A program made the position numbers and the translations under genes. The notes beneath the pieces were generated by a model, which had not been told where the DNA came from, searched no databases, and was given only the letters and a program-made list of their open reading frames with translations. Source: an uncultured Verrucomicrobiota bacterium (GTDB lineage Bacteria; Verrucomicrobiota; Kiritimatiellia; RFP12; UBA3636). Taken from it: a DNA stretch of 64,000 bases. Positions 5,475 through 40,018 of this stretch are shown here, piece by piece (positions within the stretch are counted from its first letter, which is position 1; every line of letters begins with the position of its first letter). Where the stretch lies: contig CAMVRE010000001.1 of the NCBI GenBank assembly GCA_947169825.1, positions 16,463-80,462 on the forward strand, written 5' to 3'.

Positions 5475-5591
5475 GGTGTGTCCTTGGCTGGTGTTGTCGC
5501 GGGCGATTTGCCCGACACCATCCATAATCCGCCGGCGCGGATTCTTTCCACGTGGCGTCGGCGAATAGGACCGGATTCCGTCCTTCGTCCG

Positions 5592-9860: not shown

Positions 9861-10148
9861 ATGAGGAAGCTTCTGGACCATCTCAAGGCGCACGAGGGCA
9901 CGGCGGATCCGTGGATCCTCGTCTGGGACAACCGCGGAACGTTTCCGCGGAAGGTTGGCGAACTCATACGCATCTGCAATCTTGCGACGGGCGCCTCGCA
10001 GCTCTTCGGCATCCCCGTCCGCACGTCGACCTACGTCGACTACCGCGGCGAGGTCGTCCTCGAAACCCGCGTCGAGCGCGCCGAGCTTCCGGAGCTCGTC
10101 GCCCGCCTCGAGTCCCGCCTCCGCCGCCCGCTCCGCCGCGTTTCGTGA
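9861..10148 (+). CDS. Small conserved protein (95 aa); partner gene of the AlbA_2 module, paralog of 14852-15142
   Basis: ggggagaag lies upstream. It is about 80% identical at both protein and DNA level to 14852-15142 (DPWILVWDNRxTFPRKVGxxIRICNLATGAS..FGIPVRTSTxVDYRGEVVLETRVERAELPEL). It ends 38 nt before the AlbA_2 gene. Confidence 0.65.
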   Translation: MRKLLDHLKAHEGTADPWILVWDNRGTFPRKVGELIRICNLATGASQLFGIPVRTSTYVDYRGEVVLETRVERAELPELVARLESRLRRPLRRVS

Positions 10149-13871: not shown

Positions 13872-14741
13872 TCACGCGGCCTTGTATCGTCGTTCATAGG
13901 CCCGTCGGTCGAACGCAACCGACGGGAACACCTTCCCGAACGAATGGTCGAGCAGGGACGGCGTCTCGCGGTAGCGGCCGCCGGTGTTGTCCAACAGCCG
14001 ACCCATCGGGTTGACGACGATGTAGGCGTTAACGATGTCCGCCGTGTTCTCCACGACGGGGCGGCAGTCCGCGTGGCGCGCCGCAAAAGCCTCGAATTCC
14101 GCGCCGGAGACGAGCAGATCGTCCGCGTGGTCGTTCGTCCCTTCGATCCGGATCATCCGCAGCAGCTTCCACCGATCGGGACGGACTGCCGCCACCAAGG
14201 CGTGGAAGTCCTGGCGGCAGTTCACCCGGTTGACCACGGTGTTGATCTTCAGCCGGATTCCCGCGGCGTGGATCGCGCGCGCCAGCTCCCCTAGCCGCGA
14301 CATGGACAGGCTCTGGCCGGCGCCGTTGACACGCCCCAGCCGGCAGTTGTCCTCGTGGCGGAAGGCGTCGACGCTGATGCCGATCATGGACAGCTTGTTC
14401 CGGTTGGCGTCGATCCACGACGGCGTGAGCAGGCTGCCGTTCGTGATGACGGAGACGGGAATGCCCAATCCGTGGATGTGGTCGATCAGCCCTTGGGCGA
14501 ACGGCGCCGCCAGAGGCTCTCCTCCCGCCAGATTGAACCGGCGCACGTCCACGTCGCGAGTGATGTTGGAGACGATTCGCTTCCATTCTTCCAGCCCCAG
14601 CGGCGTCCTGCCGAAACGCGAATGGCAGAACCGGCACCGGTAGTTGCAGATGTCGGTGTAGTGGAGATTGACGACCAGGTCCTGGTATTCCTTCATGGCA
14701 CGGGTTCCTTGTTCGGGTTGGATGGCTTCCACATTTGGCAT
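13872..14741 (-). CDS. Prokaryotic viperin-like radical SAM enzyme (pVip)
   Basis: VVNLHYTDICNYRCRFCH carries the CxxxCxxC cluster. GGEPL and SVITNGSLL align with eukaryotic viperin (NYHFTRQCNYKCGFCFH...SGGEPF...VSNGSLI). GGAGGA lies 7 nt upstream of ATG 14741. Confidence 0.85.
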   Translation of the reverse strand: MPNVEAIQPEQGTRAMKEYQDLVVNLHYTDICNYRCRFCHSRFGRTPLGLEEWKRIVSNITRDVDVRRFNLAGGEPLAAPFAQGLIDHIHGLGIPVSVITNGSLLTPSWIDANRNKLSMIGISVDAFRHEDNCRLGRVNGAGQSLSMSRLGELARAIHAAGIRLKINTVVNRVNCRQDFHALVAAVRPDRWKLLRMIRIEGTNDHADDLLVSGAEFEAFAARHADCRPVVENTADIVNAYIVVNPMGRLLDNTGGRYRETPSLLDHSFGKVFPSVAFDRRAYERRYKAA

Positions 14742-14851: not shown

Positions 14852-15142
14852 ATGCACAAACTCCTAGAACACCTCAAAGCGCATCTTTCGACGGCCGATC
14901 CGTGGATTCTCGTCTGGGACAATCGCGAGACGTTTCCGCGGAAGGTCGGGGACCGTATCCGCATCTGTAATCTGGCGACGGGCGCGTCGCTGTTCTTCGG
15001 CATCCCCGTTAGGACTTCGACCTGGGTCGACTACCGCGGCGAGGTCGTTCTCGAAACCCGTGTCGAGCGGGCCGAACTACCGGAACTGCTCGCGCGCCTC
15101 GAGGCGCGACTCCGACATTCGCCGGGCCGCCGCGTTTCATGA
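14852..15142 (+). CDS. Small conserved protein (96 aa); partner gene, paralog of 9861-10148
   Basis: See 9861-10148. The 3' flanking sequence tgatttcctttcggc is also duplicated. Confidence 0.65.
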   Translation: MHKLLEHLKAHLSTADPWILVWDNRETFPRKVGDRIRICNLATGASLFFGIPVRTSTWVDYRGEVVLETRVERAELPELLARLEARLRHSPGRRVS

Positions 15143-15179
15143 TTTCCTTTCGGCCGTCCTTCTGGTAGAATTCATCTCC

Positions 15180-18100
15180 ATGCAAGCCACTTCCACCGCA
15201 CGGTCTCCTCTGGTTCCCGTCAACGGATACGATTTTGCCCGATCGGTTCTCGACCAGGAACCGGATCGTGGCGTCGAGATACTTCTTCAGGCGGCAGGCG
15301 AAAACGAATCGGACTGGCTCGAAAAGAAAGCCGCGGTCTACCGGTCGGAAAGCAAGGACGAACGCTTCCGGAAAGCGTTGGAAAACTGCCCCCCCGAACA
15401 GAGGAAACGCAGGAAAGATCTCCTGAATCTCGAATTGCTCGCTGAAATCGCCAAGGCCATCGTCGCCATCCACAACTCCCGAGGTGGCGTTTTGTTCGTC
15501 GGCATCGACGACCAAACCAATGAACCCGTTTCCTTCGAAAACAACGACGGCGGAGAAATCTGGAGGACGAACGGAAAGGGCGACTATGCCCTCAAGGCGG
15601 TTTGGGGCCGGCTTGCCCGGGAGAACGGAGAGTTTCGTTTCGACCACGAGACATTGATCGTTCCGGTGGAAGCCGTCGGCGTGGTTCCAAAATGGTGTCG
15701 CTACAAGAACGCGGATGTCCTCGCCCTGCTCATCCCCCCGCTCGCACCCGAAAAGAATCCGCTTGAAGTCACGCACGTCGAAAACAATTCTCCGTGGAGA
15801 TCCATTCCGAAGAGAGCACCAGGAGATGTCGGTCAAGTCAAGAAGGAAATGCGAAACGATGCGTGGATCGGTTCCGCCGCACAATTGGCCGATTTCCACC
15901 ACGCCCGCCAAGAACGTTTTCTAAATCAAACCGATCTTGCTTCCAAACTCAAGATACTTGGTCTTTCCGTTCCCAGCTCCTTTGTTTCCCAAATTCCGAA
16001 GCCCCGGCAGGAAATCACCTCGACCGTCGACCGTCCGCGCGCAGCCAACTTCGTCGGACGCGAAAAGGAACTCGAAGAGTTGCACGAACTGCTCGCGGAC
16101 GGACGAATCCCCGTCGTGACCGGTCCAGGTGGGACGGGCAAGTCCGAGTTGGTCCTCCAGTACGCCGCACGGAACAAGGCCGACTACCCCGGAGGTTTGT
16201 TCCAGATTGACATGGAAGACGTCACCGATTGGAATCAGACCTTCCTATCAATGCTGGAGAAGCCCGGCGTTCGGGATGTTCTCGGACTTCCGGTGAACAA
16301 CGAAGCCGAGATAGAATGTGAAGCCGAAAAGGAACCAAGTGTCAATAGTGCGGAATTGGCAGCCGACGGAACTGGCATGCCATGCGACAATTGCTTGAGA
16401 GAGAGCATCGCCGGAGACAAGAAATCCGTTCCAGCGGCCTTGTCCGCCCGGGTCGGCAGGGCAGGTCCCATTTTGATGATCCTTGACAACGTCGATCCTC
16501 CAGCCTGCAAAACGCTTTTCAAGGAAACCGTCCTCTCCAAACTGGGTCTTCCGTCCGACGTGAAAATCGTCGCCACGGCACGGGCGTCAGATCTTACCTT
16601 TCCGGCCAGCGGCGTCTGCAAGGAATTCCGACTTTCCGACTTGTTGCCGGATGTAGCCGTCCGGTTTTTGCTGGCAAATCACCCGGAGGCTTCCGAAGAC
16701 GAACGGAAGGCGGCGGAAAACATCGCCCGGATGCTTGATTATCGCATCCTCTATCTGAAGGCCGTTCCCTCGCTGTTGGAGGATGACGATTCCGATTTTG
16801 CCGGGTCGTGGAGGGCACTCGAAGCGGGCCTGCGCGACAATCTCGCGGATGTCGTCGCCGCGGGAATGGAAGACGACAGGGGCCGGACGCCGTCCGCCCT
16901 TTGGCAACTGACGCAAAAGGCTTTTGCCGCCAATCGTCCAAAAGGAGACAGGTGGATTCTCCTGGCGCGGATCGCCTCGTTCTTTTCTCCTGACCTCGGC
17001 ATCCGGAAAGCCGCGCTTTCCGCATTGTGGAAAAGCATCTCGGCGCCAGATGGCGATCTGGACATCGCCTTTGATCAGGCGATCAACAAACTTCTCAAGC
17101 ATGGTATCCTCGAGGACCGAGACGGCGAATACTATATGCATCGTCTCACATGCGCGGCCATTCGAGCCGCTTCAAGAGAGGAAGCGCCGAACATCGAGGA
17201 ATCTGTCGGTTTGTCATTGGCGGGAACTGGTCGCTCGGAGAGTCGGGACTGGGTATCGCTCTCCGGCAGTATTCCGGCCCTGCGCCATGTCCCGGAGGCT
17301 CTGCTCGACGGAAAGACGTGCGTTGACATCCTGTGCGGCAACCGTCAATTCGCCGACCTTTGCCCGTGGACAAAACTCGACTATTCTGATTGGAGGAAAC
17401 TTCTTGCCTTTCATCCACAGTTTATCGATCAATTGCAACAATCCGCTGATAATGGCAGCGCTGGTGCACAAATCGCTCTTGGGATTTGTTACTATTACGG
17501 TCGCGGCGTGAACCAGAATTACGAAGAAGCCGTAAAATGGTTCCGCAAGGCTGCCGAGCAGGAAAACGCTGCTGCGTATTCGAATCTCGGCGTATGCTAC
17601 GAAAAGGGCCGCGGCGTGGAACGGAACGCCGAAGAGGCCGCGAAATGGTACCGCAAAGCCGCCAATCAGGAAAACGCTACTGCGCAGACCAATCTCGGCA
17701 ATTGCTACTACAACGGTTGCGGCGTGGAACAGAGTTCTGAGGAAGCCGTGAAGTGGTACCTCAAGGCCGCCGAGAAGGGAAACGCTGATGCGCAGTTCAA
17801 TCTCGGCGTATGCTATGGCAATGGCCACGGCGTGAAGCAGAACGCCGAGGAAGCTGTGAGGTGGTTCCGCCAGGCCGCCAATCAGGAAAACGCTACTGCG
17901 CAGTTCAATCTCGGTTGCTGCTACTACCACGGTCGTGGTGTGGAACAGAACTACGAAGAAGCCGTGAGGTGGTGGCGCAGGGCCGCCGATCAAGGAAAGG
18001 GTGCAGCGCAATTTAATCTTGGCGTGTGCTATGGCAAGGGCCACGGCGTGGATCGGAGCGCCGAGGAAGCCGTGAAGTGGTACCGTAAGGCTGCCGAGCA

Positions 18101-19067
18101 GGAAGACGCCGCTGCGCAGGCTAGGCTCGGCTTGTGCTACGAGGAGGGCGAAGGCGTGGAACGGAACGCCGAGGAAGCCGTAAAATGGTACCGCAAGGCC
18201 GCCGAGCAGGGCAACGCTTCTGCACAGACAAAACTCGGTTATTGCAAGAATGACGGCCGTGGCATAGAACGAAGCGTCGAAGATGCGGTGAAGTGGTGGC
18301 AAAAAGCGGCAGAACGGGGGTACGCCCCGGCTCAATGGGAACTCGGTAGTTGCTTTGCCCTCGGAAAAGGTGTCGCGCGGAATGAGGAAGAGGCCGTAAA
18401 CTGGTGGCGTAAGGCGGCGGACCAAGGAAACCCCTGGAGACAAATCCGTTTGGGCCGGGTTCTTTTGTTCGGGAACGGCGTTGAAAAGAACGAGGCGGAG
18501 GCGTTCCGTTGGTTCCAGCGCGCGGCGGAACAAAAAGACGATTATGCGTTCGCCTGGCTCGGCTACTGTTTCGCGTCAGGAACCGGGACGCCCAAGGATA
18601 CACAAAAATCTGAATCGCTCTTTTTGAAGATCAGTCAACCCGCTCTTGGATTCAACGAGATTGCATGGTGTTTGTTCAAAGCAGGACGGTTTTCGGATGC
18701 CTTGCCGTTCGCGGAAAGGGCAGTTGCCGCGTTGCGGACAATCGAAGACTTCCCGATGCAGAAACGAATTATAATCCTCGATACACTTGCTGCCATTTTT
18801 CACCATTTGAACCGGGAAGAGGAAACGAAAGACGTTTGCTCCGAAATCCTGTCTCTGTTCCCAGAAAACGACGATTCAAAACACCACGAGGAAGCTCTCG
18901 TCCGGCTCGGGCGGGCCTGTCAACGCCTTGGCGACAAATCTGGCGCGGTCGATGCGTTCCAGAAGGCACTAACCATTGTGGAACGGCATGACGGCAAGCA
19001 CGCCGAATACGGAGAGTCCGCAGATTCCTTGCGCGCGTTGCTGGCCGAATTGTCGGAACGCGGTTGA
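15180..19067 (+). CDS. AlbA_2 N-terminal domain fused to STAND (NB-ARC-like) NTPase and Sel1/TPR repeat array; Avs-like architecture
   Basis: NGYDFARSV...ESDWLEKKAA...AIHNSRGGVLFVGIDD. Walker A PVVTGPGGTGKSELV and Walker B ILMILDNVD. At least 12 Sel1-type repeats (AQxxLGxCYxxGxGVxxNxEEAVKWYRKAAEQ). C-terminal TPR-like segment. Confidence 0.85.
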   Translation: MQATSTARSPLVPVNGYDFARSVLDQEPDRGVEILLQAAGENESDWLEKKAAVYRSESKDERFRKALENCPPEQRKRRKDLLNLELLAEIAKAIVAIHNSRGGVLFVGIDDQTNEPVSFENNDGGEIWRTNGKGDYALKAVWGRLARENGEFRFDHETLIVPVEAVGVVPKWCRYKNADVLALLIPPLAPEKNPLEVTHVENNSPWRSIPKRAPGDVGQVKKEMRNDAWIGSAAQLADFHHARQERFLNQTDLASKLKILGLSVPSSFVSQIPKPRQEITSTVDRPRAANFVGREKELEELHELLADGRIPVVTGPGGTGKSELVLQYAARNKADYPGGLFQIDMEDVTDWNQTFLSMLEKPGVRDVLGLPVNNEAEIECEAEKEPSVNSAELAADGTGMPCDNCLRESIAGDKKSVPAALSARVGRAGPILMILDNVDPPACKTLFKETVLSKLGLPSDVKIVATARASDLTFPASGVCKEFRLSDLLPDVAVRFLLANHPEASEDERKAAENIARMLDYRILYLKAVPSLLEDDDSDFAGSWRALEAGLRDNLADVVAAGMEDDRGRTPSALWQLTQKAFAANRPKGDRWILLARIASFFSPDLGIRKAALSALWKSISAPDGDLDIAFDQAINKLLKHGILEDRDGEYYMHRLTCAAIRAASREEAPNIEESVGLSLAGTGRSESRDWVSLSGSIPALRHVPEALLDGKTCVDILCGNRQFADLCPWTKLDYSDWRKLLAFHPQFIDQLQQSADNGSAGAQIALGICYYYGRGVNQNYEEAVKWFRKAAEQENAAAYSNLGVCYEKGRGVERNAEEAAKWYRKAANQENATAQTNLGNCYYNGCGVEQSSEEAVKWYLKAAEKGNADAQFNLGVCYGNGHGVKQNAEEAVRWFRQAANQENATAQFNLGCCYYHGRGVEQNYEEAVRWWRRAADQGKGAAQFNLGVCYGKGHGVDRSAEEAVKWYRKAAEQEDAAAQARLGLCYEEGEGVERNAEEAVKWYRKAAEQGNASAQTKLGYCKNDGRGIERSVEDAVKWWQKAAERGYAPAQWELGSCFALGKGVARNEEEAVNWWRKAADQGNPWRQIRLGRVLLFGNGVEKNEAEAFRWFQRAAEQKDDYAFAWLGYCFASGTGTPKDTQKSESLFLKISQPALGFNEIAWCLFKAGRFSDALPFAERAVAALRTIEDFPMQKRIIILDTLAAIFHHLNREEETKDVCSEILSLFPENDDSKHHEEALVRLGRACQRLGDKSGAVDAFQKALTIVERHDGKHAEYGESADSLRALLAELSERG

Positions 19068-19328: not shown

Positions 19329-20561
19329 ATGCAGGCGGACGATCTTGAATCAGCACAGACCGTGCTGCAGGACAAAGTATTCCGGCGCGCAGGCGAACTC
19401 GGATACGACGCCGACAAGATTGAGCCGATCTATGACGGCGTGGCCGATGCAGTGGCATATCTTGACGCGAAGCCGCGGTTGATGTGGATCCTCAAGGAGC
19501 CCTACGACGACTGGGACGACGATGAAAGTCCCTGCGGCGGCGGATGGACGTTCTTCCGGGATGTCGCGAAGGGAAAGACCCTCGCGCAGGTCGCGAACGC
19601 GAACCCGGCCCTTCGCAACGTGGCGTACGCAAGCCGAGCCATTCTGGGCGGCATCGGTTCCTACGCAGAGCTGCCGTGGATTGTGGATGCGCCGGCGGAC
19701 TACGAGCGCTCGCTGCGGAGCATCGCGTTCGTAAACGTGGGCAAGATGCCGGCGGGTCGGACCACGAGCGAGGAACGCCTCGCCGCCTGTTATGCGCAAT
19801 GGAAGGACGTTCTCTTCGAGCAGATCGATCTCTATGATCCGGACATCCTCGTCTTCGGCAACACGCTGCAATGCTTCGAGCCGGACATGGGACTTGATCT
19901 TTCCAAGCCGGTCCGGACCGTGAAGAACGGAGGATCGACGGTGGATATCCACGTTTGGCGCGGCAAGCGCATCCTCTGGGCGCCGCATCCCGCCGCTCAC
20001 ATTCAACCCGAAGAATGGGTGGATTCCGTCATCGAGGCGGCACGGGGCCCGTTAATCCAGGCGGCGCGCTCGGCGAGCGCGCCCTACCGGGAGGAATCCG
20101 CCAGTCCGGTAGGGCGCGATGGCCCCATCGCGCCGGATTCCGAAATCGCGGTACGACCGTCGCAGAAAGTCGCACCGGAAGAAAAAAGCGGGCAGGCCCG
20201 GAAAACAGCGGCGGCTACCGCTTATACAAGGCAGAACAACCCCACGAACACACAACAAAACGAATCCAAAACCAGGAGCAGCACCATGTCCCAAGTCCAC
20301 GCCAATCCCGACGAAATCCGCGACTTCGCCGCCCGGCTCCAGGCCTGCGACGAGAACATCTCGGACGAACTTTCCGCCACGGCCGCCGCGTTCGCGGCGC
20401 TCGGCGACACCTGGAACGACGCCAAGCGCGCGGAGTTCGAGGAATCCTTCGAGGAGCTGAAGGACTGCATCGGCCGCTTCTCGGCCTCCTGCGCGGAGCA
20501 GGTTCCCCACCTGATCCGGCTCGCCGACCACCTCGACGAATTCAACGCCACCTTCTGCTGA
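19329..20561 (+). CDS. Hypothetical protein; N-terminal ~240-aa unknown domain and C-terminal 91-aa helical WXG100-like segment (possibly two genes, see findings)
   Basis: AAGGAA 7 nt upstream of ATG 19329. The ORF is continuous, but residues 241-319 are the translation of a GC-rich palindromic repeat. An A/C-rich canonical leader precedes internal ATG 20286 (MSQVHANPDEIRDFAARLQA...LGDTWNDAKRAEFEE...). Confidence 0.5.
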   Translation: MQADDLESAQTVLQDKVFRRAGELGYDADKIEPIYDGVADAVAYLDAKPRLMWILKEPYDDWDDDESPCGGGWTFFRDVAKGKTLAQVANANPALRNVAYASRAILGGIGSYAELPWIVDAPADYERSLRSIAFVNVGKMPAGRTTSEERLAACYAQWKDVLFEQIDLYDPDILVFGNTLQCFEPDMGLDLSKPVRTVKNGGSTVDIHVWRGKRILWAPHPAAHIQPEEWVDSVIEAARGPLIQAARSASAPYREESASPVGRDGPIAPDSEIAVRPSQKVAPEEKSGQARKTAAATAYTRQNNPTNTQQNESKTRSSTMSQVHANPDEIRDFAARLQACDENISDELSATAAAFAALGDTWNDAKRAEFEESFEELKDCIGRFSASCAEQVPHLIRLADHLDEFNATFC

Positions 20562-20566
20562 ACGAA

Positions 20567-21769
20567 ATGGAAACCGTCGCCTCCGTCGAAAACATGGAAG
20601 ATGTCTCGTCGGCCCTCTCCTCCGGGGTCGAGAACGCGGCGGAGTCCGTCCGCGAGACGGGCTCCTCGCTCGACGGCCTCTCGGAGGCGGCCGACGCCGC
20701 CCTCGCCGATGCGGAGCGCGCGGTCGAGGAGGCCCGGGCAGAAGTCGTCCGGCTCGAATCGCTGGTTTCGTCCCTCGAATCGCAAATCTCCTCCCAAGAC
20801 GACGGCGAGAAGGATTCCGGCGGAAACGATTCCGCCGCGGCCGAACTCGCGTCCGCGCAGGCGGATCTCGGAGAAGCGAAGGAAGAGCTTCGCAATTGCG
20901 AGGACCGTCGCGAGAAGGCGGCGGCGACGGCGCGCCGGGCGACGGCGCTGCGCGAACGCTTCCTGGACGCGAGCCGAGCTTCGCTGAAGCGGATGGAGGA
21001 TCTCGGAACCCTGTGCGCCTCCCGCGTCCGGCATGCCTGCGAGGCGCTGGAGAAGTACATCGCCGAACATCCCGGACACGCGGCGGCCGGATTCGCCGGA
21101 TGGATCCGGTGGACTCCGCCGGCGAACGCGCCCGTGACGCCCGATGCGCTCGCCGCCCGGATCAAGGGCGCGAATCTCCGGGAATCCATCGCCTACGAGG
21201 CGGAGCGCGATCCGCGGTTCCGGTCCAAGATCGAGGACTACGGACGCCGCTGGGAGTCCGCGGCCACGCTCTCGGAGAAGACGGCCGTCATCCGCCAGGC
21301 GCGCCGGAACGCCAGCGGCGAACTGGCGGAACGCGTCGTGACGGCGGCGTTCCGCCCGATCGGAGACGTCTCCACGCAGAACCGGACCGTCTTCGACGAC
21401 GGGCGCTACACGAAGACGGATCTCGTCGTCCGCAACCTGCGCGCGCCGGTGATCCTCGGGCGCGGCGACCGCGCCTTCGCCCCGAAAGGAGGGACGATCG
21501 CGTTCGAGGTCAAGGCGGGACAGGCGTCCTACCTGCGGTCGCAGGAGGACCATCTCGCGTTCCAGGCCGGCGGGCACCGGACGGCGAACGCCTCGGCGAC
21601 GATCTGCACGGCGGACATCCACGATCTGCCGGAAGCGGAGGAGCGCGAACTGAGGGACAGGCTCCGCGCCGCGGGTTCGCCGATCCTCGGCATGCTGCCG
21701 CGGAAGCGGGATATCGACCGGGCTCTCTACGAAGCCATCGTCTACGGAATCGGGAAGACCAGACCATGA
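20567..21769 (+). CDS. Coiled-coil N-terminal / putative PD-(D/E)xK nuclease C-terminal protein (polymorphic-toxin-like)
   Basis: Ala/Glu-rich helical N-terminus (AERAVEEARAEVVRLESLVSSLESQ). C-terminal YTKTDLVVRN...GGTIAFEVKAGQ fits the D...(D/E)xK restriction-endonuclease-fold motif. Translationally coupled to the upstream stop. Confidence 0.55.
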   Translation: METVASVENMEDVSSALSSGVENAAESVRETGSSLDGLSEAADAALADAERAVEEARAEVVRLESLVSSLESQISSQDDGEKDSGGNDSAAAELASAQADLGEAKEELRNCEDRREKAAATARRATALRERFLDASRASLKRMEDLGTLCASRVRHACEALEKYIAEHPGHAAAGFAGWIRWTPPANAPVTPDALAARIKGANLRESIAYEAERDPRFRSKIEDYGRRWESAATLSEKTAVIRQARRNASGELAERVVTAAFRPIGDVSTQNRTVFDDGRYTKTDLVVRNLRAPVILGRGDRAFAPKGGTIAFEVKAGQASYLRSQEDHLAFQAGGHRTANASATICTADIHDLPEAEERELRDRLRAAGSPILGMLPRKRDIDRALYEAIVYGIGKTRP

Positions 21770-21966
21770 ACGACAATCTCGCGACCTCCTTCAAGCGCGC
21801 TCTTGAACTCTTCCGGGAACAGACCCGCGGCGAGTTCGCGACGAATCTGATGGAGAAGGTCCTCGAACCAATGGCGAACGAACTGGACGCCCTGTCGTCC
21901 GAAATCGAAAGCGCGAACCGGGAACTCTCCGATCTCGAAACCGAACTCGAAGGAAACAACGAATGA
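21766..21966 (+). CDS. Small helical protein (66 aa), hypothetical
   Basis: ATG overlaps the upstream stop (ATGA). Coiled-coil ELDALSSEIESANRELSDLETELE. Ends 4 nt into the next start. Confidence 0.5.
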   Translation: MNDNLATSFKRALELFREQTRGEFATNLMEKVLEPMANELDALSSEIESANRELSDLETELEGNNE

Positions 21967-24900
21967 AGAACGACATCCGCGAAACCAACGACGAAATCCG
22001 CCGCCTCGTCGGCGCGCTCGACGCGAGCCTCGACGGCATCCCCGCCGGGGAGGTCGCGCGAGAAGCGGCGCTGAAGGCCCGGGCCGGGAAACTCGACGGC
22101 GAGATCGTGGGCCTGCTCGCGAAGGCGGGCTTCACCCGGGAAACGGCTGGCGCGGGCGCTTTCGACTCCCTGCGCCGAGAGGCGTCCGAACGCGCAGCCG
22201 AACGCGCGGGACGCGAAGGGGAAGCGTCGGACGCCGCGACCCGCGCGGCCGCGGTCCGCGCGGAAATCGCGGGGCTGGACGCCGACATCGAGTCGGCCAA
22301 GGCGCGGCAAAAGGCCCTCACGGACCGGATCGACGCGCTGACCGCCGAAATCCGGAACCGGTGGATCGTCGAGGACATCTGGCATTGGATCTTCGGGGAC
22401 GAGGCGAAGGCCGAGAAAGCGAGGGCCGAAGGCGCGAGGGCCGCCGTCCGGAACGAACTGGACGTGCTCCTCGGAAGCCTCCACGAGAAGGAGGAGCGCC
22501 GGAACGCTCTCGCCGCCGAAGAGTCGGACCTGCGCCGCCAGGAGGCCGAACTCGACGCCCGGATCGGGGAGAACGCCGCGCGGCAGAACGCCTTCCGAAA
22601 CGCCGTCGCGACGGCGCGGGAACACGGGAAGGTCCTCGCGGAACTGTCCGATCTGAAAGGCCGGCAGGAGAAGCGGGCCGCCGAACGCGCGCAGGCGGGA
22701 CGCGACGCAGCAAGGGAGCTCGGGGAGCGCGTCGCGGACATCCTCGGCGCGCAGCCCCGGCTCGCGGACCTCGGACCGGACGGATACGGGCGCGCGGAGA
22801 CGTTCCCGAAGGCGTTTTCGTTCGGGCGCTACCGCTTCTCCGCGGACGGCCACGACTGGTGCGTTCCGCGGATCCTGCCGTTCCCCATGCCGAAGTCGCT
22901 CGTCTTTCCCGCGACGGAAGCGGGGACGGCGGCCGTCCGCGAATTCCTCCTGCGCGCGTTCCAGTGCCTTCCGCCGGAATCCCTCGAGATCACCGTGTGC
23001 GATCCCGTCCGGATGGGCGCCTCGCTGAACGGGTTCCAGGGACTCCTCGACAACCGGAAGCCCGTCGCCGGCGGGAAGTTTCCGACCGTCGCGCCCGAAA
23101 TTGAGGAGGCGCTGTCGCGGCTTCACGGCGCGATCGAGACGTTCCTGCAGGAGGAGTGCACGGGCGAGATCCGCGACTGGGCGTCCTACAACGCCGCCCA
23201 TCCCGACCGGCCGAAGACCTACCGGATCCTCGCGATGTTCGACCTGCCGGACCAGCTCACGGACGCCGCCGCGGGCTACCTGGCGAAGATTCTCGAGAAC
23301 GGCCCGAAGTGCGGCATTCTGCCCCTTCTGGCCCTCGATCCGGCGAAGCTCGACCCCCGGAGGCATGCCGCGCTGAAGGCCGCTCTCGGAGCCTTCGCGT
23401 GGGACGCCGGACGGATGCAGGGGATTTTCGGCGGCTTTCCGGTTCTCCGGAACGCGCGTCTCGCCGCGGAGGAACCGTGCGCCCTTCCGGACGACGCGGG
23501 CGTCTCGGCGGCCCTTTCCGGGCTGTGCGCCGGCTACGCGGAGCGCGACCGCTTCGCCGGATCGCTGGAGTCGGTCTTGCGGGACGAGGCGTTCTGGGGA
23601 GCCACGTCCGAGAACGGCCTGGAGGCGACGATCGGATGGGAGGAGGAGAGCCGGGCCCCCGTCCGGTTCTCGCTGAGCGACCAGCCGCCCGTCCATGCGC
23701 TGCTCGGCGGATCGACCGGCTCGGGCAAGACGAACCTGCTCCACGTGCTGATCCACTCCCTCTGCCACCGGTATTCGCCGCGCGAGCTGAACCTCTACCT
23801 GCTCGACTACAAGGAGGCGACGGAGTTCAACGCCTATGCGCGCCCGCTCCTGCCTCACGCCGCGGGCATCGCAACGGAGAGCGACGTGGAATACGGCATC
23901 TCGGTCCTGCGCCATCTGGAGCGGGAGCGCATCCGCCGTTCCGAGCTCTTCAAGGAGGCGGGAACCGTCGATATCCGCGGATACCGGCGCAAGACCGGGG
24001 AGGCGCTGCCGCGCATCCTCCTCGTCGTCGACGAATTCCAGCGGCTGTTCGAGGGCGCGAAGGCGGGCGCCGAGGCGGAGACCCTGTTCCGGAACCTCCT
24101 CAAGCTCGGTCGGTCGGCCGGCATCCATCTGCTGATGGCGACGCAGACGGTGAACGGGCTCCAGAACATCGTTTCGATCCGGACGTTCCTCGGGCAGATG
24201 GCCTGCCGTCTCGCGCTGAAGTGCACGCCGGAGGATTCGGCCACGCTGCTCGCGATGGACAACCTGGCGGCGTCGACGCTGCCGGGACCGCCGCACGGCA
24301 TCCTCAACAACGACCTTGGAAAGAAGTCGGCGAACGTCCGCCTCTGCATCCCGCTGGCGGATCCGGACGGCTGCAAGGCCCACCTCGAGGAGCTGTCCGC
24401 AGCGGCGGCCGAACGTGGCGAGGGCGTGTCGGACTGCCGCGTGTTCCGCGGCACGGCGCTTCCGGAGCCGCCCGCGGACGGCGGGCTCGTTTCGCCGGAG
24501 GAGATCCGCGGCCCTCGGATCGCCGTCGGCCGGACGGCGGACTTCGAGGAGGAGCCGGTCTTCGCGGACCTGGACGGAAAGAACCTGCTCGTGGTCGCCC
24601 GGCGATCCGACATCGCCGGCGGGCTCCGCCGCGCGATCGCGCGGGGGATCGCCGCCGGGGCGGGAACGAAGGAGGTCCTTCTCTATTCGGAGAATCCGGA
24701 GGACTGGAACGCCCTCGACGGGGCCGCGAACATCGTCCGCGTCGACGACGAATGGAGCGGCGAGAACCTCGACGAGTTTGCGGCAAGGGACGCGGCCCGC
24801 AAGGTCGTCGTCCTCGACGGGTTCGAAAATCTCCGCGGGCTCCGCTCGGCGGGATACGTCCCCTCGCGGAGCGGCCCTTCCGCGGCGGAACGCCTCCGCG

Positions 24901-25181
24901 CGCTGGTCGAGCGACCGAAGAAAAGCGGCGTGCAGCTCGTGCTGCTCTTCCGCGACTACGGACGGGCGTGCCAGGACGCCAAGGGCCTGCTCTCGGTCTG
25001 CGACCTGCGCATCGGAGACATGACGCTCTCCGAACCGGCGAAGTTCCTCGGCTTCGAGGGAATCGGGCCGAGGGAGGTTCCGGCGCTCTCCCCGACCAAG
25101 GCCGTGCTGATCGACCGCGACGCCGACGGACCGGCCGTGTTCCGGCCGTTCGCGCAATCGAAAGGGGGCGCGCAATGGTAG
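21963..25181 (+). CDS. FtsK/SpoIIIE-family ATPase (single ATPase domain) with N-terminal coiled-coil region
   Basis: Walker A LLGGSTGSGKTNLLHVLI, Walker B RILLVVDEFQRLF, and GRSAGIHLLMATQTVNGL. GAAGGA RBS. No TM segment apparent. Confidence 0.85.
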   Translation: MKNDIRETNDEIRRLVGALDASLDGIPAGEVAREAALKARAGKLDGEIVGLLAKAGFTRETAGAGAFDSLRREASERAAERAGREGEASDAATRAAAVRAEIAGLDADIESAKARQKALTDRIDALTAEIRNRWIVEDIWHWIFGDEAKAEKARAEGARAAVRNELDVLLGSLHEKEERRNALAAEESDLRRQEAELDARIGENAARQNAFRNAVATAREHGKVLAELSDLKGRQEKRAAERAQAGRDAARELGERVADILGAQPRLADLGPDGYGRAETFPKAFSFGRYRFSADGHDWCVPRILPFPMPKSLVFPATEAGTAAVREFLLRAFQCLPPESLEITVCDPVRMGASLNGFQGLLDNRKPVAGGKFPTVAPEIEEALSRLHGAIETFLQEECTGEIRDWASYNAAHPDRPKTYRILAMFDLPDQLTDAAAGYLAKILENGPKCGILPLLALDPAKLDPRRHAALKAALGAFAWDAGRMQGIFGGFPVLRNARLAAEEPCALPDDAGVSAALSGLCAGYAERDRFAGSLESVLRDEAFWGATSENGLEATIGWEEESRAPVRFSLSDQPPVHALLGGSTGSGKTNLLHVLIHSLCHRYSPRELNLYLLDYKEATEFNAYARPLLPHAAGIATESDVEYGISVLRHLERERIRRSELFKEAGTVDIRGYRRKTGEALPRILLVVDEFQRLFEGAKAGAEAETLFRNLLKLGRSAGIHLLMATQTVNGLQNIVSIRTFLGQMACRLALKCTPEDSATLLAMDNLAASTLPGPPHGILNNDLGKKSANVRLCIPLADPDGCKAHLEELSAAAAERGEGVSDCRVFRGTALPEPPADGGLVSPEEIRGPRIAVGRTADFEEEPVFADLDGKNLLVVARRSDIAGGLRRAIARGIAAGAGTKEVLLYSENPEDWNALDGAANIVRVDDEWSGENLDEFAARDAARKVVVLDGFENLRGLRSAGYVPSRSGPSAAERLRALVERPKKSGVQLVLLFRDYGRACQDAKGLLSVCDLRIGDMTLSEPAKFLGFEGIGPREVPALSPTKAVLIDRDADGPAVFRPFAQSKGGAQW

Positions 25182-25344
25182 GGCGCGACGGCCCGTCGCG
25201 CCGGGCGCCGCGGCGCGTTCGGCGAACGCGCCCTACCGGGATCGGAATCCTCCTTGTGTTTCGGTGGAAAACCCGGAGCGTTGGGATTTATAGAAAGTGA
25301 AAGGACGACGGCCGTCCCGCGAAACCAACCGAAACGATAGCGAC

Positions 25345-26562
25345 ATGAACGAAGAGAACCTCCCCGCCCTCCCGATTCCGCACTGCCCCGTGATGATCGT
25401 CCTCGACACGTCCCACAGCATGTGGGGCCGCGGGATGCAGGACCAGCAGGACGCGCTCAAGGCCTTCCACAAGACCCTGGGCGCGCTCGAATTCGCCGAC
25501 TCGCGGATCGAGATCGCGGCGGTCGGGATGGGCGAGAACCTGAAGGTGCTGCAGCCCTTCGCGCCGCTCGCGGAGTCGAACGTCGCGAATCTGGCGATCC
25601 GTCCGAAGGGCGACACACCCGTTGGCGGCGCGCTCCGGCTCGCGCTCGGCGAACTGCGCCGGAGGACGGACGAGCTCCGCCGCGCCGGCGAGGGCGTCGC
25701 CACGCCGCAGCTGCTGGTTCTCTCGGACGGGAAGTCCTCGGACGACTTTTCCGCCGAAGCCGCCGAGATCCGCCGGGAAGCGGCGGCGGGCCGGCTCGTC
25801 TGCCGGGCCGTCGCGACCGGCGGGAGTCCAGACCTCGGCGCGCTCGCGCGCATCGCGGGGGAGAAGGTCGACCGTCCCGACTACGGAGGCCTCCGCGAGA
25901 CCTTCGCGAGGATCGGCGAAAAAGTGTCGCAGACCTACGAGGACGCCGTTCCCGACCTTCTGATGGCCGAGACCCGGCCGACGCCGAGCGGAACCTACGT
26001 CGAGGAGAAGCCCCGCCCCCTCGGCAACTCCGGTCGCCTGTCCGGCCGCACGGTGCTCGTGGACGGAACGAACGTCTGCTTCTGGGGACGGAACGGAACG
26101 ACAGCGAGCCTTGCGCCCGTCCTTGCGCTCGCCCGGGCGCTCGACGCGGAGGGAGCGGACTGGCAGGCGTGCTTTGACGCCTCCACGCGCCATCATCTGG
26201 CCCGGGGAGGAACCGGCGACGAGGCGGCCTACGAGAGACTTCTCCGCAGCCGTCCCGAGCGCTTTTCGGAGGCGCCGGGTGGAACCTGCGCCGACGTGTT
26301 TCTGCTCCAGGCCGCCGCCGCCGACCCGAAGACCGTCGTCGTCTCGAACGACTTCTACCGGGACCACGTGGCGGAGTATCCGTTCGTCAAGGACAAGAGC
26401 CGGTTCTTCCGCGGCGGCGTGTTCCGCGACCAGCTCTGCATCCCGAATCTCGGGATTCGCTGCGCGCTGATCCGGACGAGCGCGGCGTCTGACGCCGAAA
26501 TCCGTGAAACGGAGAAAAAGAGAACCTCCTGTGGAATCTTAGACGAGGGATTCCTTATCTAG
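25345..26562 (+). CDS. von Willebrand factor A domain fused to Zc3h12a-like NYN ribonuclease domain
   Basis: MIDAS VMIVLDTSHSMWG...GDTPVGGAL...LLVLSDGKS. C-terminal VLVDGTNVCFWGR...KTVVVSNDFYRDHVAEYPFVKDKSRFF aligns with MCPIP1 (DGSNVAMSHG...IVVSNDTYRDL...SFVNDKF). The start may be GTG 25297 instead. Confidence 0.8.
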   Translation: MNEENLPALPIPHCPVMIVLDTSHSMWGRGMQDQQDALKAFHKTLGALEFADSRIEIAAVGMGENLKVLQPFAPLAESNVANLAIRPKGDTPVGGALRLALGELRRRTDELRRAGEGVATPQLLVLSDGKSSDDFSAEAAEIRREAAAGRLVCRAVATGGSPDLGALARIAGEKVDRPDYGGLRETFARIGEKVSQTYEDAVPDLLMAETRPTPSGTYVEEKPRPLGNSGRLSGRTVLVDGTNVCFWGRNGTTASLAPVLALARALDAEGADWQACFDASTRHHLARGGTGDEAAYERLLRSRPERFSEAPGGTCADVFLLQAAAADPKTVVVSNDFYRDHVAEYPFVKDKSRFFRGGVFRDQLCIPNLGIRCALIRTSAASDAEIRETEKKRTSCGILDEGFLI

Positions 26563-26620
26563 GACAGAAGGACGCATCAAACCAACCCGAATTCGAACAA
26601 CAACAAGAAGGAACAAAACC

Positions 26621-27883
26621 ATGTCTCTCCTCCTCCTCGGCGGTCTCGCCATTGCCGGAATTGCGGCCTGGAACGCGCTCTCGGACAGTTCGTCCGGCTC
26701 GACGCCGGCCGCGCCGCCCCCGGCTCCCGTTCGCCGTCCCCGTCCGTCTCGTTCAGCGGGTTCCTCCCGTCCTTGCAAGGCGACGCCGACGCGCCCCCGG
26801 ACGCCGAAGGCGCTTCCTCCGACGGGCGGCGGATGGCTCGCCCAGTGCGGAGCGAGCGCCGTCCCGACCGGCGGGCCGACGACGGTCTACGACCCCAGCG
26901 GAAACCCGCTCCAGCTCTCCGCCGCCGACGAACTCGCCAGCGGCGGCGAGGGGACCGTCTACCGCTGCCCCGGGCACGACGGGTTCGTCATCAAGCTCTA
27001 CAAGCGCGACATCGTGGACAACCCGGAGAAACAGAAGGCCGTCGTGGGGAGACTCCGCGACATGCTCGTCATCGAGGCGCTCCGCAAGGATCGCGACATC
27101 GCCTGGCCGCAGATGCCCGTCTATGACGCGAACAAGCGCGTGGCGGGGTTCGTCATGCGCGCCGTTGACGGAGCGTCCTTCCGTTCCCTTCAGGGCGCGG
27201 CCCAGATCCAGCGTCTGTTCCCCGAATGGGATCGGAAGGACCTGGCCCTCGTGGCGCGCAACTTCCTCGACAAGATGCAGCTTCTTGCGGACCACGGCGT
27301 ACTCGTGAACGACTTCAACCCGGCGAACTTCATCGTCGGAAGGGACCACAGGGTCCGCCTCATCGACTGCGACAGCTTCCAGATTCCCTCCGCGAACGGA
27401 GGCTCTCCGCATGTCACGACGACCTACTTCGCCTCTCACTCCGCGCCGGAGCTCCTTCGCGATCCCTCGCTTCTCAAGCGGTCCCGCGGGCCGGAGCAGG
27501 CTCGGTTCGGTGCAGCCATCATCGTGTTCCAGCTCCTCATGTGCGGACTGCATCCCTACAGCCACAAGAACGGAGGAACTCCCGAGGGAAACCTCAAGGC
27601 CGGGCAATGCCCGCTGGGAATCGGTTCGGGATGCTCGATTCCGACTGGCTGGTACAATCTCCTTAGCTACCTTCCCTACACGATGATGGAGAAATTCATC
27701 CGGATGTTCCGTGACGGGCACGGCGACCTCTCGGTTCGACCGACTCTGGCGGAACTGAGAGCGGAAGTGGAGAAGTTCCTCTTCGTCATGAAGAAAGATC
27801 CGCTCCGCAGGGAACTTGCCCCGGCGACGCCCAAGGTGAAATCGGACTCGAACCAAGGTCCTTGGAAAAAACCGGCGGCCTAG
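26621..27883 (+). CDS. Membrane-anchored Ser/Thr protein kinase-like protein
   Basis: N-terminal TM LLLLGGLAIAGIAAW. Gly-rich loop LASGGEGTVYRC, then VIKLYK, HGVLVNDFNPANFIV (catalytic loop) and LIDCDSF (DFG-like). Confidence 0.75.
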   Translation: MSLLLLGGLAIAGIAAWNALSDSSSGSTPAAPPPAPVRRPRPSRSAGSSRPCKATPTRPRTPKALPPTGGGWLAQCGASAVPTGGPTTVYDPSGNPLQLSAADELASGGEGTVYRCPGHDGFVIKLYKRDIVDNPEKQKAVVGRLRDMLVIEALRKDRDIAWPQMPVYDANKRVAGFVMRAVDGASFRSLQGAAQIQRLFPEWDRKDLALVARNFLDKMQLLADHGVLVNDFNPANFIVGRDHRVRLIDCDSFQIPSANGGSPHVTTTYFASHSAPELLRDPSLLKRSRGPEQARFGAAIIVFQLLMCGLHPYSHKNGGTPEGNLKAGQCPLGIGSGCSIPTGWYNLLSYLPYTMMEKFIRMFRDGHGDLSVRPTLAELRAEVEKFLFVMKKDPLRRELAPATPKVKSDSNQGPWKKPAA

Positions 27884-27967
27884 TGGAAAACCCGGAGGCC
27901 CAGAACTTAATCTAGGTAAAGGAACGAACAACCAAGCTTCAACAAACCCACAAACCCCGAACAGACC

Positions 27968-28663
27968 ATGAAAGACTACGCCAACAACAACACCCTCGAC
28001 GTCACCAACCCCGCGCCGCGCTGCCCGGTGATTCTTCTCCTCGACACGTCCGGAAGCATGGACGGCTCGCCGATCCACGAGCTCAACCAGGGCGTCCGGC
28101 AGTTTCTGGAGGAGACGAGGAGCGACGAGGCGGCCGGTATGAGCGTCGAACTGGAGGTCATCACTTTCGACGACCGCGCCTCGCGCGTCATTCCCTTCCG
28201 GTCCATCGCGGGCGTGAACGGCCTGCCTTCGTTCGGAGCCGGCGGAATGACGAGCATGGGCGCCGCGCTGCGGATGGCGACGGCCGATCTCAAGGCCCGC
28301 CGCCACCTCTACCGCCAGACCGGCGTCTCGAGCTACCGTCCGTGGGTGGTGCTGATGACGGACGGCGGTCCCAACGACGAGTGGCGGAACGCCGCCCGTG
28401 AGATGCGCGAGATGGGGGAGCGAGGGCGCATCCAGTACATCGGCATCGAGATCGGCCATCAGGTGGACCATCGGACGATGTGCCAGATCCTGCCGGCGAA
28501 TCCGGGGCCCGTTCGTCTGCAGGGGCTGAAGTTCAAGCAGTTCTTCCGCTGGCTCACGGACTCCCTGCGCAGCGTCTCCCGCAGCACGCCGGAGCAGGAG
28601 AGCCAGGTGCGGTTCGGCGACATCCGGTCATGGGCCGACCTGGCGAGCCTCGAGAACCTCTAG
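27968..28663 (+). CDS. vWA domain protein (TerY-like)
   Basis: PVILLLDTSGSMDG (MIDAS DxSxS), then SMGAAL...VVLMTDGGPND. Confidence 0.8.
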   Translation: MKDYANNNTLDVTNPAPRCPVILLLDTSGSMDGSPIHELNQGVRQFLEETRSDEAAGMSVELEVITFDDRASRVIPFRSIAGVNGLPSFGAGGMTSMGAALRMATADLKARRHLYRQTGVSSYRPWVVLMTDGGPNDEWRNAAREMREMGERGRIQYIGIEIGHQVDHRTMCQILPANPGPVRLQGLKFKQFFRWLTDSLRSVSRSTPEQESQVRFGDIRSWADLASLENL

Positions 28664-28685
28664 GCCGATGGAAGGAACGAAGAAA

Positions 28686-29792
28686 ATGACCGACAGGAAC
28701 CACCCGATTTCGCGCGGCTTCGCTGCCTCCGTCCCCGGCGCGGGGCACATCCGGTACGCCACGCCGTGCCAGGACGCCTCCGGTGCGATCCTTGCGCCGC
28801 GTCCGGCGGCCATCGTCTGCGACGGCCGCGGCAGCGCGAGGCTCTCGCACTTCGGAGCGCAGGGCGCGGTTCGCGCGTTCTTCAGCCAGCTGAGCGTCCT
28901 CGAGCCGTTCCTCGCCGGCGTGCTCGACCGGGAGGCGCCCCAGGAGAAGTGGGACGGCCTCTGCCGACTCCTCTACCGGACGCTCCTTCAGGTCAAGCTC
29001 GACCTCGCGGCGGAGCGCGGCGGCGAGGAGAAGGACTTCGACTTCACCGTGGCGTTCGCCGTGGCGGGGACCGTCTCGATCGGCTGCTTCCAGGTCGGCG
29101 ACGGGGCCATCGTCCTGCGGAACGGAGGCGTCTGCAGGACCGCGTTCGAGCCCGACAAGGGCGAGTTCGCGAATCAGACTCAGTTCCTCCGTCCGGGCGG
29201 CGATGCCGCGGGAAAGTTCCACGCCAGGCTCTTCCCCGCCGAAGAGAACGAGGGCGTGGCGATCACCTCGGACGGCCCCGAGCACCTCATGTTCCGCCAG
29301 CCCGCGATGGAGCCCGGCCCCATCTTCGGACAGCTTTTCGACGATCTTGCCGCGGGCGAACTCTGCGAGCAGGACCTCCGCGACTATCTCACGAGGGCCG
29401 TCTGGTCGTCCGATCCGCGCGGTTCGGACGACCGGTCCATCGCGGTGCTCCTTCCGAACGCCGCGCAAACTGCAGTCCATCCGACGAAAGCGAAAACGCC
29501 CGACCGGGGCCGTCCGGAACCGCCGCCCGAGCCGATCGGGAACGAAGACGACGATGGACCGGAGGACGATTCAATGGAACCGAACGAAATCCGGAACGAG
29601 GCGGCGCCGTCCGCCGAACGCGCCACGTGCGCTCCGCCGCGTCGACCCGTCTCCCCCTGGATCGCCGCCGCCATCCTCGCCGCCTGCATTCTCGTCGCCG
29701 TGGACACGATCCGCTCCTGGTGGAAGCCGTGCCTCGAATGGAGCGCCGCCCCGACCGCCGCGTACGCCCAGCCGGAGAACGACAACCTCTAG
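28686..29792 (+). CDS. PP2C-family Ser/Thr protein phosphatase-like protein with C-terminal TM anchor
   Basis: SVPGAGHIRYATPCQDAS...IVCDGRGSARLSHFGAQ...FAVAG...GDGAIV. GGAAGGAA sits upstream of ATG 28686; an alternative ATG at 28668 lacks an RBS. C-terminal WIAAAILAACILVAV. Confidence 0.7.
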   Translation: MTDRNHPISRGFAASVPGAGHIRYATPCQDASGAILAPRPAAIVCDGRGSARLSHFGAQGAVRAFFSQLSVLEPFLAGVLDREAPQEKWDGLCRLLYRTLLQVKLDLAAERGGEEKDFDFTVAFAVAGTVSIGCFQVGDGAIVLRNGGVCRTAFEPDKGEFANQTQFLRPGGDAAGKFHARLFPAEENEGVAITSDGPEHLMFRQPAMEPGPIFGQLFDDLAAGELCEQDLRDYLTRAVWSSDPRGSDDRSIAVLLPNAAQTAVHPTKAKTPDRGRPEPPPEPIGNEDDDGPEDDSMEPNEIRNEAAPSAERATCAPPRRPVSPWIAAAILAACILVAVDTIRSWWKPCLEWSAAPTAAYAQPENDNL

Positions 29793-29810
29793 CCAGAAAG
29801 GACCATCGCC

Positions 29811-39904: not shown

Positions 39905-40018
39905 CCGCGCCCTCAGCACATCAAGAGCCGGGGTTCTTCCGCCCCGCCCCAACCGAGCGATCGCGCCACGGTGGATCCGGACAAGCCGGGATGCGCCCTG
40001 AACCGAAAGGGAAAAACC

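Follow-up and report, generated by a model that had tools for sequence, protein, structure and literature searches.

What does a protein that joins a Schlafen/AlbA_2 head to a STAND NTPase and a long Sel1 repeat array do in an uncultured Verrucomicrobiota bacterium? The gene in question encodes 1,295 amino acids (aa) and lies in a stretch of 64,000 nucleotides, referred to here as the window (GenBank assembly GCA_947169825.1, contig CAMVRE010000001.1, positions 16,463 to 80,462 of the forward strand; Kiritimatiellia, RFP12, UBA3636). We favour, with moderate confidence, the reading that the product is an NLR-like, cytoplasmic, single-chain antiviral sensor, probably acting by abortive infection. 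The evidence comes from the domains of the protein, from its relatives, and from the organization of the locus.

A single long open reading frame (ORF) occupies 15060-19067 on the plus strand. Its first ATG, at 15180, gives the 1,295-aa product with a stop at 19067, and the identical protein sequence is also on record in public assemblies. Searches of the focal protein against Pfam returned Sel1 ten times (379 bits, E 3.8e-117), TPR_12 at aa 1199-1268 (E 4.5e-10), AAA_16 at aa 290-439 (38.5 bits, cut-off 32.6) and SLFN_AlbA_2 at aa 43-119 (26.0 bits, cut-off 25.3; profile positions 1-48 of 118 only), together with weak matches to ATPase_2 and nSTAND1. NCBIfam gave only repeat-driven and P-loop-level matches, and Pfam NB-ARC (PF00931) gave none at E<=0.1. 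The original prediction, made from the sequence alone, of a giant protein combining AlbA_2, a STAND NTPase and Sel1 repeats is borne out by the ORF, the Pfam matches and the predicted fold of the NTPase. Among the profiles it named, Sel1 and, marginally, SLFN_AlbA_2 were found, but NB-ARC was not. Because no transmembrane segment was predicted in the focal protein, it is presumably cytoplasmic. The features of the gene are as follows, where A1 is an alignment of the central 466 residues of 16 family members.

15180..19067, plus strand: focal coding sequence, 1,295 aa, with a Schlafen/AlbA_2 head, a STAND NTPase, ten Sel1 units and a TPR cap
15180..15974, plus strand: head domain, aa 1-265, AlbA_2/Schlafen fold with an N-terminal helical pair
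15306..15329, plus strand: Ex4ExK motif ESDWLEKK (E43, E48, K50), predicted nuclease active site
15474..15512, plus strand: NSRGGVLFVGIDD motif, with N99, G102, G103 and G108 invariant and D111 as a conserved third acidic residue
16041..17280, plus strand: STAND nucleotide-binding oligomerization module (nucleotide-binding domain, helical domain and winged helix), aa ~288-700
16122..16148, plus strand: Walker A motif GPGGTGKSE; G, G, K and E invariant in A1
16470..16496, plus strand: Walker B motif ILMILDNVD; D-N invariant, with an acidic residue at +3 (A1)
16569..16583, plus strand: VATAR, a sensor-1 arginine motif resembling the NB-ARC 'TTR'; T187 and R189 of A1 invariant
17130..17147, plus strand: YYMHRL, with a winged-helix His resembling the MHD motif; H375 of A1 invariant
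17448..18629, plus strand: Sel1 array, 10 Pfam units of 36 aa
18774..18983, plus strand: C-terminal TPR cap (TPR_12)

The head is read as a Schlafen-type nuclease because E43-x4-E48-x-K50 reproduces the Ex4ExK catalytic motif of SLFN11 and the bacterial Schlafens. The motif is reported to be catalytic in SLFN11 and in bacterial Schlafen defence nucleases, and SLFN11 reportedly needs it to cleave tRNA (PMC13056530); bacterial Schlafen fusions were reported in 2026 to cleave tRNA and thereby to protect against phage (PMC13056530). In a 31-sequence alignment of heads (A2), E43, W46, E48, K50, N99, G102, G103 and G108 were invariant and D111 was kept in most members, and an ExxW[LF]ExK motif was found in 23 of the 25 genome loci compared, across several phyla. 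Both hallmarks of the Schlafen/AlbA_2 nuclease domain are therefore present, namely the AlbA_2 fold and Ex4(E/D)xK with a downstream acidic residue. Judged by these residues, the head is a divergent Schlafen-type nuclease domain with an intact predicted active site, and not a passive nucleic-acid binder. The original prediction had regarded the AlbA_2 domain as standing in place of a nuclease; with its Schlafen nuclease fold, invariant E43-x4-E48-x-K50 and conserved D111, the head does not fit that description. An insert of ~35 aa (aa ~55-88) is typical of the Kiritimatiellia subgroup of heads.

An exhaustive phmmer search with aa 1-285 against 1.84 billion representatives placed the head in a small family of only 118 clusters, in which it is almost always N-terminal, in proteins of 83-2,155 aa. 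Among species-representative genomes, the head occurs in Kiritimatiellia/Verrucomicrobia and, in more distant form (22-30% identity), in Gamma- and Alphaproteobacteria, Spirochaetaceae, Polyangiaceae and Lentisphaerota. Most of the proteins concerned measure 1,070-1,380 aa and have their P-loop around aa 300-355. The domains found in 45 long head-bearing proteins were NACHT (18), AAA_16 (10), nSTAND3 (4), nSTAND1 (3), NB-ARC (3), TIR (3), and a superfamily 1 (SF1) helicase with a restriction-endonuclease domain (4). The last four proteins (AAA_11/AAA_12 helicases) recall the nuclease-helicase layout of the long eukaryotic Schlafens (alignment A3). A further head-bearing protein, of more than 2,133 aa and with a Schlafen head and a NACHT module, is encoded at 19763-23190 of L001 (the same locus as L018), in the metagenome-assembled genome to which L001 belongs.

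A search with aa 1-740 of the focal protein separated its homologues into four groups. The first comprises close full-length relatives that end in Sel1 repeats and are assigned by their annotation to Kiritimatiellae, and the second full-length relatives (42-59% identity) whose tails consist of ~23-aa 'CPWxKL..DW..LL..PQFA' repeats. Members of the third group (P0012-P0024) have the NTPase core in common with the focal protein, at 39-45% identity across 62% of the query, and carry an N-terminal TIR_2 domain instead of the Schlafen head. The fourth consists of 600-700-aa proteins that have only the head in common with the focal protein. That TIR, a known immune effector, takes the same position on the same core argues for the Schlafen head as the effector. 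In L005, the TIR-headed members sit within arrays of TIR/STING genes.

The central NTPase was classified by its predicted structure because sequence searches saw little beyond the P-loop: a PDB search with aa 1-740 and a profile of the NTPase family returned only P-loop-level matches with weak E-values (UvrA, AfsR, a plant NLR, PH0952 and Avs4). An AlphaFold2 model built on alignment A1 was confident (predicted local distance difference test score, pLDDT, 83.7). In structure comparison it matched the resting-state plant helper NLR NRC2 best (score 25.3, 326 residues aligned), followed by MalT (20.4), ADP-bound Apaf-1 (19.1), the NB-ARC domain of NRC1 (17.6) and the archaeal STAND protein PH0952 (15.2). 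The scores for AAA+ Cdc6/ORC, the NACHT modules of NLRP3 and NOD2, Avs3 and Avs5 were about 9.5-11.7. Because the comparison favours NB-ARC, MalT and Apaf-1, the modelled NTPase belongs with the NB-ARC/MalT-type STAND modules rather than with the classical AAA+ ATPases. The NB-ARC-type P-loop claimed originally thus holds at the level of predicted fold but not as a match to the Pfam model, and the region does not align to AAA+ families instead, Cdc6/ORC scoring below the NB-ARC and MalT structures.

Across the 16 members of A1, the invariant residues fall in the Walker A motif (GxGGxGKSEL), the Walker B motif (LDN plus an acidic residue), 'ATAR' at the TTR position and the His of 'MHRL' at the MHD position. 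No equivalent of GLPL could be recognized in this alignment, in which 'ATAR' and 'MHR' are invariant. The general features of the STAND superfamily are all present: Walker A GxxxxGK[ST] and Walker B hhhhD, invariant in the 16 members; the nucleotide-binding, helical and winged-helix arrangement of the nucleotide-binding oligomerization domain; and an N-terminal effector or adaptor domain with a C-terminal repeat region. A disordered acidic insert lies within the module at aa ~374-413. Unlike the focal protein, the homologues P0009 and P0015 match the NB-ARC profile.

The tail consists of ten tandem 36-aa Sel1 units (379 bits), followed by the TPR cap. The Sel1 array is also a tandem repeat at the DNA level, with a period of 108/216 bp at 17486-18238 according to Tandem Repeats Finder. 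The public sequence P0001 equals the focal protein minus exactly two Sel1 units (72 aa) and is otherwise identical; the difference may reflect real variation in repeat number or a 108-bp repeat collapsed during assembly. In non-Sel1 members (P0006-P0020; A1 columns ~500-589), ~23-aa tandem repeats of the form 'CPWxKLxGxDWxxLLxxxPQFAxx' follow the NTPase, and the focal protein retains roughly one such unit ahead of its Sel1 array, at aa ~720-750.

The gene lies among further head genes and defence genes, on the plus strand except for the viperin gene:

9861-10148, plus strand: second copy of a small gene, 95 aa, upstream of paralogue A
10186-12039, plus strand: paralogue A, 617 aa, with a head 46% identical to the focal one, one transmembrane helix and a ~310-aa C-terminal region
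12112-13476, plus strand: paralogue B, 454 aa, with a head 30% identical to the focal one, a zinc ribbon and a C-terminal domain
13872-14741, minus strand: prokaryotic viperin (pVip), between paralogue B and the focal gene, divergent from the small gene
14852-15142, plus strand: small gene, 96 aa; its end lies 38 bp ahead of the focal ATG
19329-30401, plus strand: downstream module

Viperin is a known antiviral radical-SAM gene. The assignment of pVip is firm (NCBIfam NF038283, 249 bits against a cut-off of 180; PADLOC pVip, E 1.3e-72). The downstream module encodes a WXG100-domain protein (410 aa), a 389-aa coiled-coil protein, a 65-aa protein, an EssC/FtsK-like ATPase, a VWA-NYN RNase, a Ser/Thr kinase, a VWA protein, a PP2C phosphatase and a Peptidase_Mx protein; through PP2C it spans 19329..29792 and is TerY-P-like. 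A TerY-P triad with an EssC-like/WXG100 insertion has been described in CoCoNuT type III-A loci (PMC11090510). The module also adjoins head genes in L001, L002, L009 and L010-12. We treat it only as genomic context of the head gene. Near other homologues lie AbiE (L003) and Cas1/Cas2 (L009). Paralogue A is identical to P0026. The C-terminal domain of paralogue B gave a weak Peptidase_C39 hint, and beyond this and weak zinc-ribbon hints the C-terminal parts of both paralogues matched nothing in PADLOC, NCBIfam or Pfam.

Comparison with the related loci L010 and L011 showed which part of this arrangement varies. There the order is pVip (minus strand), the small gene, a 702-aa head-transmembrane gene and the 410-aa WXG100 protein. 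Identity between the window and these loci is 80-99% for pVip and the small gene and 84-88% for the WXG100-to-FtsK region. It drops to ~60% (blastn, windowed profile) from roughly 15130-15180, and recovers at 19341; the windowed profile places the break at the end of the small gene. With the flanks conserved and the intervening cassette only about 60% identical, the head gene is the variable cassette, and pVip together with the WXG100/EssC-like/VWA-kinase-PP2C module is the conserved frame. Base composition was recorded as guanine plus cytosine (GC) content, which is 0.55-0.62 over ~10-19.5 kb compared with 0.66-0.72 in the flanks; the lower GC noted earlier for 16-19 kb is therefore real but extends more widely. 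At third codon positions (GC3), the focal gene has 0.64 and most neighbours exceed 0.85, a sign that the gene is foreign or variable; pVip, unlike the head genes, is host-like (0.85). Promoter and terminator scans around the focal gene performed no better than on shuffled sequence. The island is flanked by a PLD-like protein with two HKD motifs (2-1822, plus strand) and a Peptidase_M16 pair (4191-5525, minus strand); the M16 gene is a conserved left neighbour in L010 as well. Further along the window, at 39913-40026 on the plus strand, there is a SAM-I/IV riboswitch aptamer (Rfam RF01725, 45.4 bits, gathering score 41.1).

The small ORF immediately upstream of the focal gene is a real gene, since its ratio of nonsynonymous to synonymous polymorphism (pN/pS) is about 0.2 across five copies and 45 of ~95 protein columns are invariant. 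Its product belongs to a family of 32 clusters, all at least 70% identical. It matched nothing in Pfam, NCBIfam, PADLOC or PDB, and its profile found nothing in PDB at E<=10. Within the window, the 230 bp preceding the ATGs of the focal gene and paralogue A are 87% identical. Elsewhere, the small gene precedes head genes in L002, L003/4, L009, L010-12 and L013; among genome representatives, it stands directly before the head gene in 5 of 5 Kiritimatiellia/Verrucomicrobia-type loci with this head subgroup. The other 20 of the 25 loci lack it, including the proteobacterial head-STAND loci and L018, which is from Kiritimatiellae and has a head of just 24% identity. The two proteins also co-diverge: heads of 36-38% identity go with small proteins of 48-51% identity, and heads of 48-52% with small proteins of 77-89%. 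This co-occurrence and co-divergence suggest that the small protein may be a physical partner of this head subgroup.

Two loci show further small-gene arrangements. In L001, a small-gene fragment (codons 1-34, 9250-9351) that looks like a rearrangement scar lies just upstream of the focal homologue, and an intact copy precedes the WXG100 gene. In L002 (5295-9692), about 12 small ORFs separate the STAND homologue from a tandem array of three Schlafen-head genes, of which one carries TIR_2 as well; the sizes of these ORFs recur (146/140/84/61/49/140/84 aa), which suggests duplicated small-gene cassettes.

For the antiviral sensor that we favour, the analysis shows the predicted domain folds, the conserved catalytic and NTPase motifs, the neighbouring defence genes, the exchange of the Schlafen head for TIR, the variability of the cassette and the co-occurrence of the small gene. 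The trigger, the oligomerization, the RNA that is cut and what the small protein does are inferred, as follows. The Sel1/TPR solenoid would bind a trigger, most likely a phage protein, and binding would free the NB-ARC/MalT-type STAND module from an ADP-locked resting state. The module would then bind ATP and oligomerize, and the clustered Schlafen heads would become active as RNases, most likely against tRNA, so that translation would stop. The small protein would partner the head, as an inhibitor or antidote or as an assembly factor. Because the focal gene occupies a variable cassette slot, which differs among related genomes, strains would carry different sensor tails on the same head.

Several observations weigh against this reading. 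With D-N in place of D-D/E in its Walker B motif, the NTPase may hydrolyse nucleotide slowly or not at all. At the sequence level the head is marginally supported (26.0 against 25.3 bits in Pfam), and a Foldseek search with the head gave no match at E<=0.001. In PADLOC, the focal protein matched neither an Avs model nor that of any other defence system at E<=0.1. Sel1 repeats are generic protein-binding scaffolds and by themselves are no indication of phage sensing. Some head-bearing relatives also carry TIR (L002) or a helicase with a restriction-endonuclease domain; given these additions, the head could be something other than the sole effector, and a sensing or adaptor role is conceivable. 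Finally, the role of the small protein as partner or regulator of the head is predicted purely by inference.

A bolder reading builds on the same parts. In Kiritimatiellia, the small gene and the Schlafen head might form a constant 'handle' whose tails are swapped by recombination inside the fixed viperin and WXG100/EssC-like/TerY-P frame, with the small protein as a dedicated, co-evolving inhibitor or licensing factor of the head. The tails seen behind the head include STAND-Sel1, STAND with 23-aa repeats, transmembrane, zinc-ribbon and TIR. We put this forward tentatively and regard it as unlikely; if true, several genes would together make up an immune locus whose receptors can be exchanged and whose small protein regulates Schlafen nucleases in a way not described before.

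In many bacterial 'transcriptional regulator' proteins, AlbA_2 is joined to a helix-turn-helix (HTH) domain and serves as a non-cutting binder of DNA or RNA. The focal protein might be a MalT/AfsR-type signal-transduction regulator and no immune effector, with an AlbA_2 head of this non-cutting kind and a STAND/Sel1 part that senses a metabolite or protein and controls neighbouring genes. We consider this quite improbable, given that the full catalytic motif is invariant across all architectures, that Pfam found no HTH or other DNA-binding output domain in the focal protein, and that sister proteins carry TIR heads on the same NTPase core. The gene is also a variable, low-GC3 cassette among defence genes, unlike housekeeping regulators.

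In the LXG toxin loci of type VII secretion, proteins with a constant N-terminus and a variable C-terminus are preceded by a small conserved gene. The head proteins show the same layout, their cassette is exchanged between conserved flanks, and head genes lie directly upstream of the WXG100/EssC-like cluster in the window and in L001, L002, L009 and L010-12. They might thus be LXG-like cargo or clients of that ATPase module, with the head serving in recognition or trafficking, the small protein as adaptor or chaperone, and the C-termini as payloads. This is very unlikely, however, for the variable C-termini are STAND NTPases with repeat sensors and not toxin domains, no EssC cluster accompanies the small-gene/head-STAND pairs in the available sequence of L003 and L013, and proteobacterial head-STAND proteins lack the small gene altogether. 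In addition, no transmembrane segment was predicted in the EssC/FtsK-like ATPase or the WXG100 protein, which argues against secretion (PMC11090510).

Equally little probability attaches to a homotypic adaptor, in which the three head paralogues would co-assemble through their heads, in the manner of death-fold or 'effector-associated' domains, and the STAND protein would recruit paralogue A (membrane) or B (zinc ribbon) as the real effectors. The head is indeed the only part common to the three tandem genes, same-head arrays also occur in L002 (AlbA_2) and L005 (TIR), homotypic effector-associated domains are described in STAND conflict systems (PMC7159879), and Schlafen nuclease domains work as oligomers, RorSlfn5 being a hexamer. 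However, the heads are only 30-46% identical within one genome, which is unexpected for obligate co-assembly, the catalytic residues are kept in all three paralogues, and in many genomes, as at L003, L013 and the proteobacterial loci, the head-STAND gene stands alone, away from any paralogue. That the Sel1 protein is secreted or periplasmic is rejected, since no transmembrane segment is predicted and the N-terminus is unlike a signal peptide.

The antiviral sensor reading can be set beside known systems. Avs9, the bacterial SAMD9 analogue reported in 2025, has an AlbA_2-SIR2-NTPase-TPR-OB architecture, its toxicity needs the AlbA_2 site, and it lies near defence genes (PMC12680541). Compared by description, the focal protein shares with it an N-terminal AlbA_2/Schlafen-type head with a conserved site, a central STAND-type NTPase and C-terminal helical repeats. 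It differs in that Pfam found neither SIR2 nor OB, the repeats combine Sel1 with TPR, the NTPase comes nearest to NB-ARC/MalT and the head belongs to the small separate family of 118 clusters; with the head ending at ~aa 265 and the P-loop at aa 315, there is no room for SIR2. The bacterial NACHT protein bNACHT34 (2022) begins with a Schlafen RNase (Kibby et al., bioRxiv 10.1101/2022.07.19.500537). The Schlafen RNase occupies the same effector position there, and NACHT occurs in 18 of the 45 long proteins with the focal-type head, but the focal protein itself has no NACHT-type NTPase module. These two precedents mean that an AlbA_2 head on a STAND protein is not as unusual as the original prediction held.

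In its logic, by which one chain unites an N-terminal effector, a STAND switch and C-terminal sensor repeats, the protein resembles Avs1-5 (AVAST), but it matches no Avs hidden Markov model in PADLOC at E<=0.1; the Avs-like label proposed for it thus stands for the logic of the architecture and not for a model match. The likeness to pSlfn1-55 (PMC13056530) and to eukaryotic SLFN11/12/13/14 lies in the AlbA_2/Schlafen fold and the Ex4ExK site, for which tRNA cleavage and translation arrest would be the expected output. With the NB-ARC/AP-ATPase and MalT clades of STAND proteins it shares a nucleotide-binding, helical and winged-helix fold aligned over 326-359 residues, with 'ATAR' and 'MHR' resembling TTR and MHD; it departs from NB-ARC in lacking a Pfam NB-ARC match and a recognizable GLPL, and in its D-N Walker B.

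Schlafen heads on bacterial STAND proteins are thus already published, and the architecture is no longer surprising to specialists. Less ordinary here are the small partner gene and the cassette organization, whose mechanism is hypothetical. Distant head-STAND relatives, without the small gene, are carried by the cultured bacteria Sulfitobacter mediterraneus DSM 12244, Oceanicella actignis DSM 22673 and Marinobacterium marinum, so the basic head-STAND mechanism is testable in the laboratory. The combination of a Schlafen nuclease with an NLR-like switch is now recognized as an immune module common to bacteria and animals (SAMD9/9L, SLFN11). To this module the locus adds a lineage in which the Schlafen head, exchangeable for TIR, sits on an NB-ARC/MalT-type switch with a Sel1 sensor. 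The cassette variation and the change in Sel1 copy number offer a natural series for the diversification of sensor specificity, and if the small protein controls the nuclease, it would provide a new handle on how Schlafen-type tRNases are silenced.

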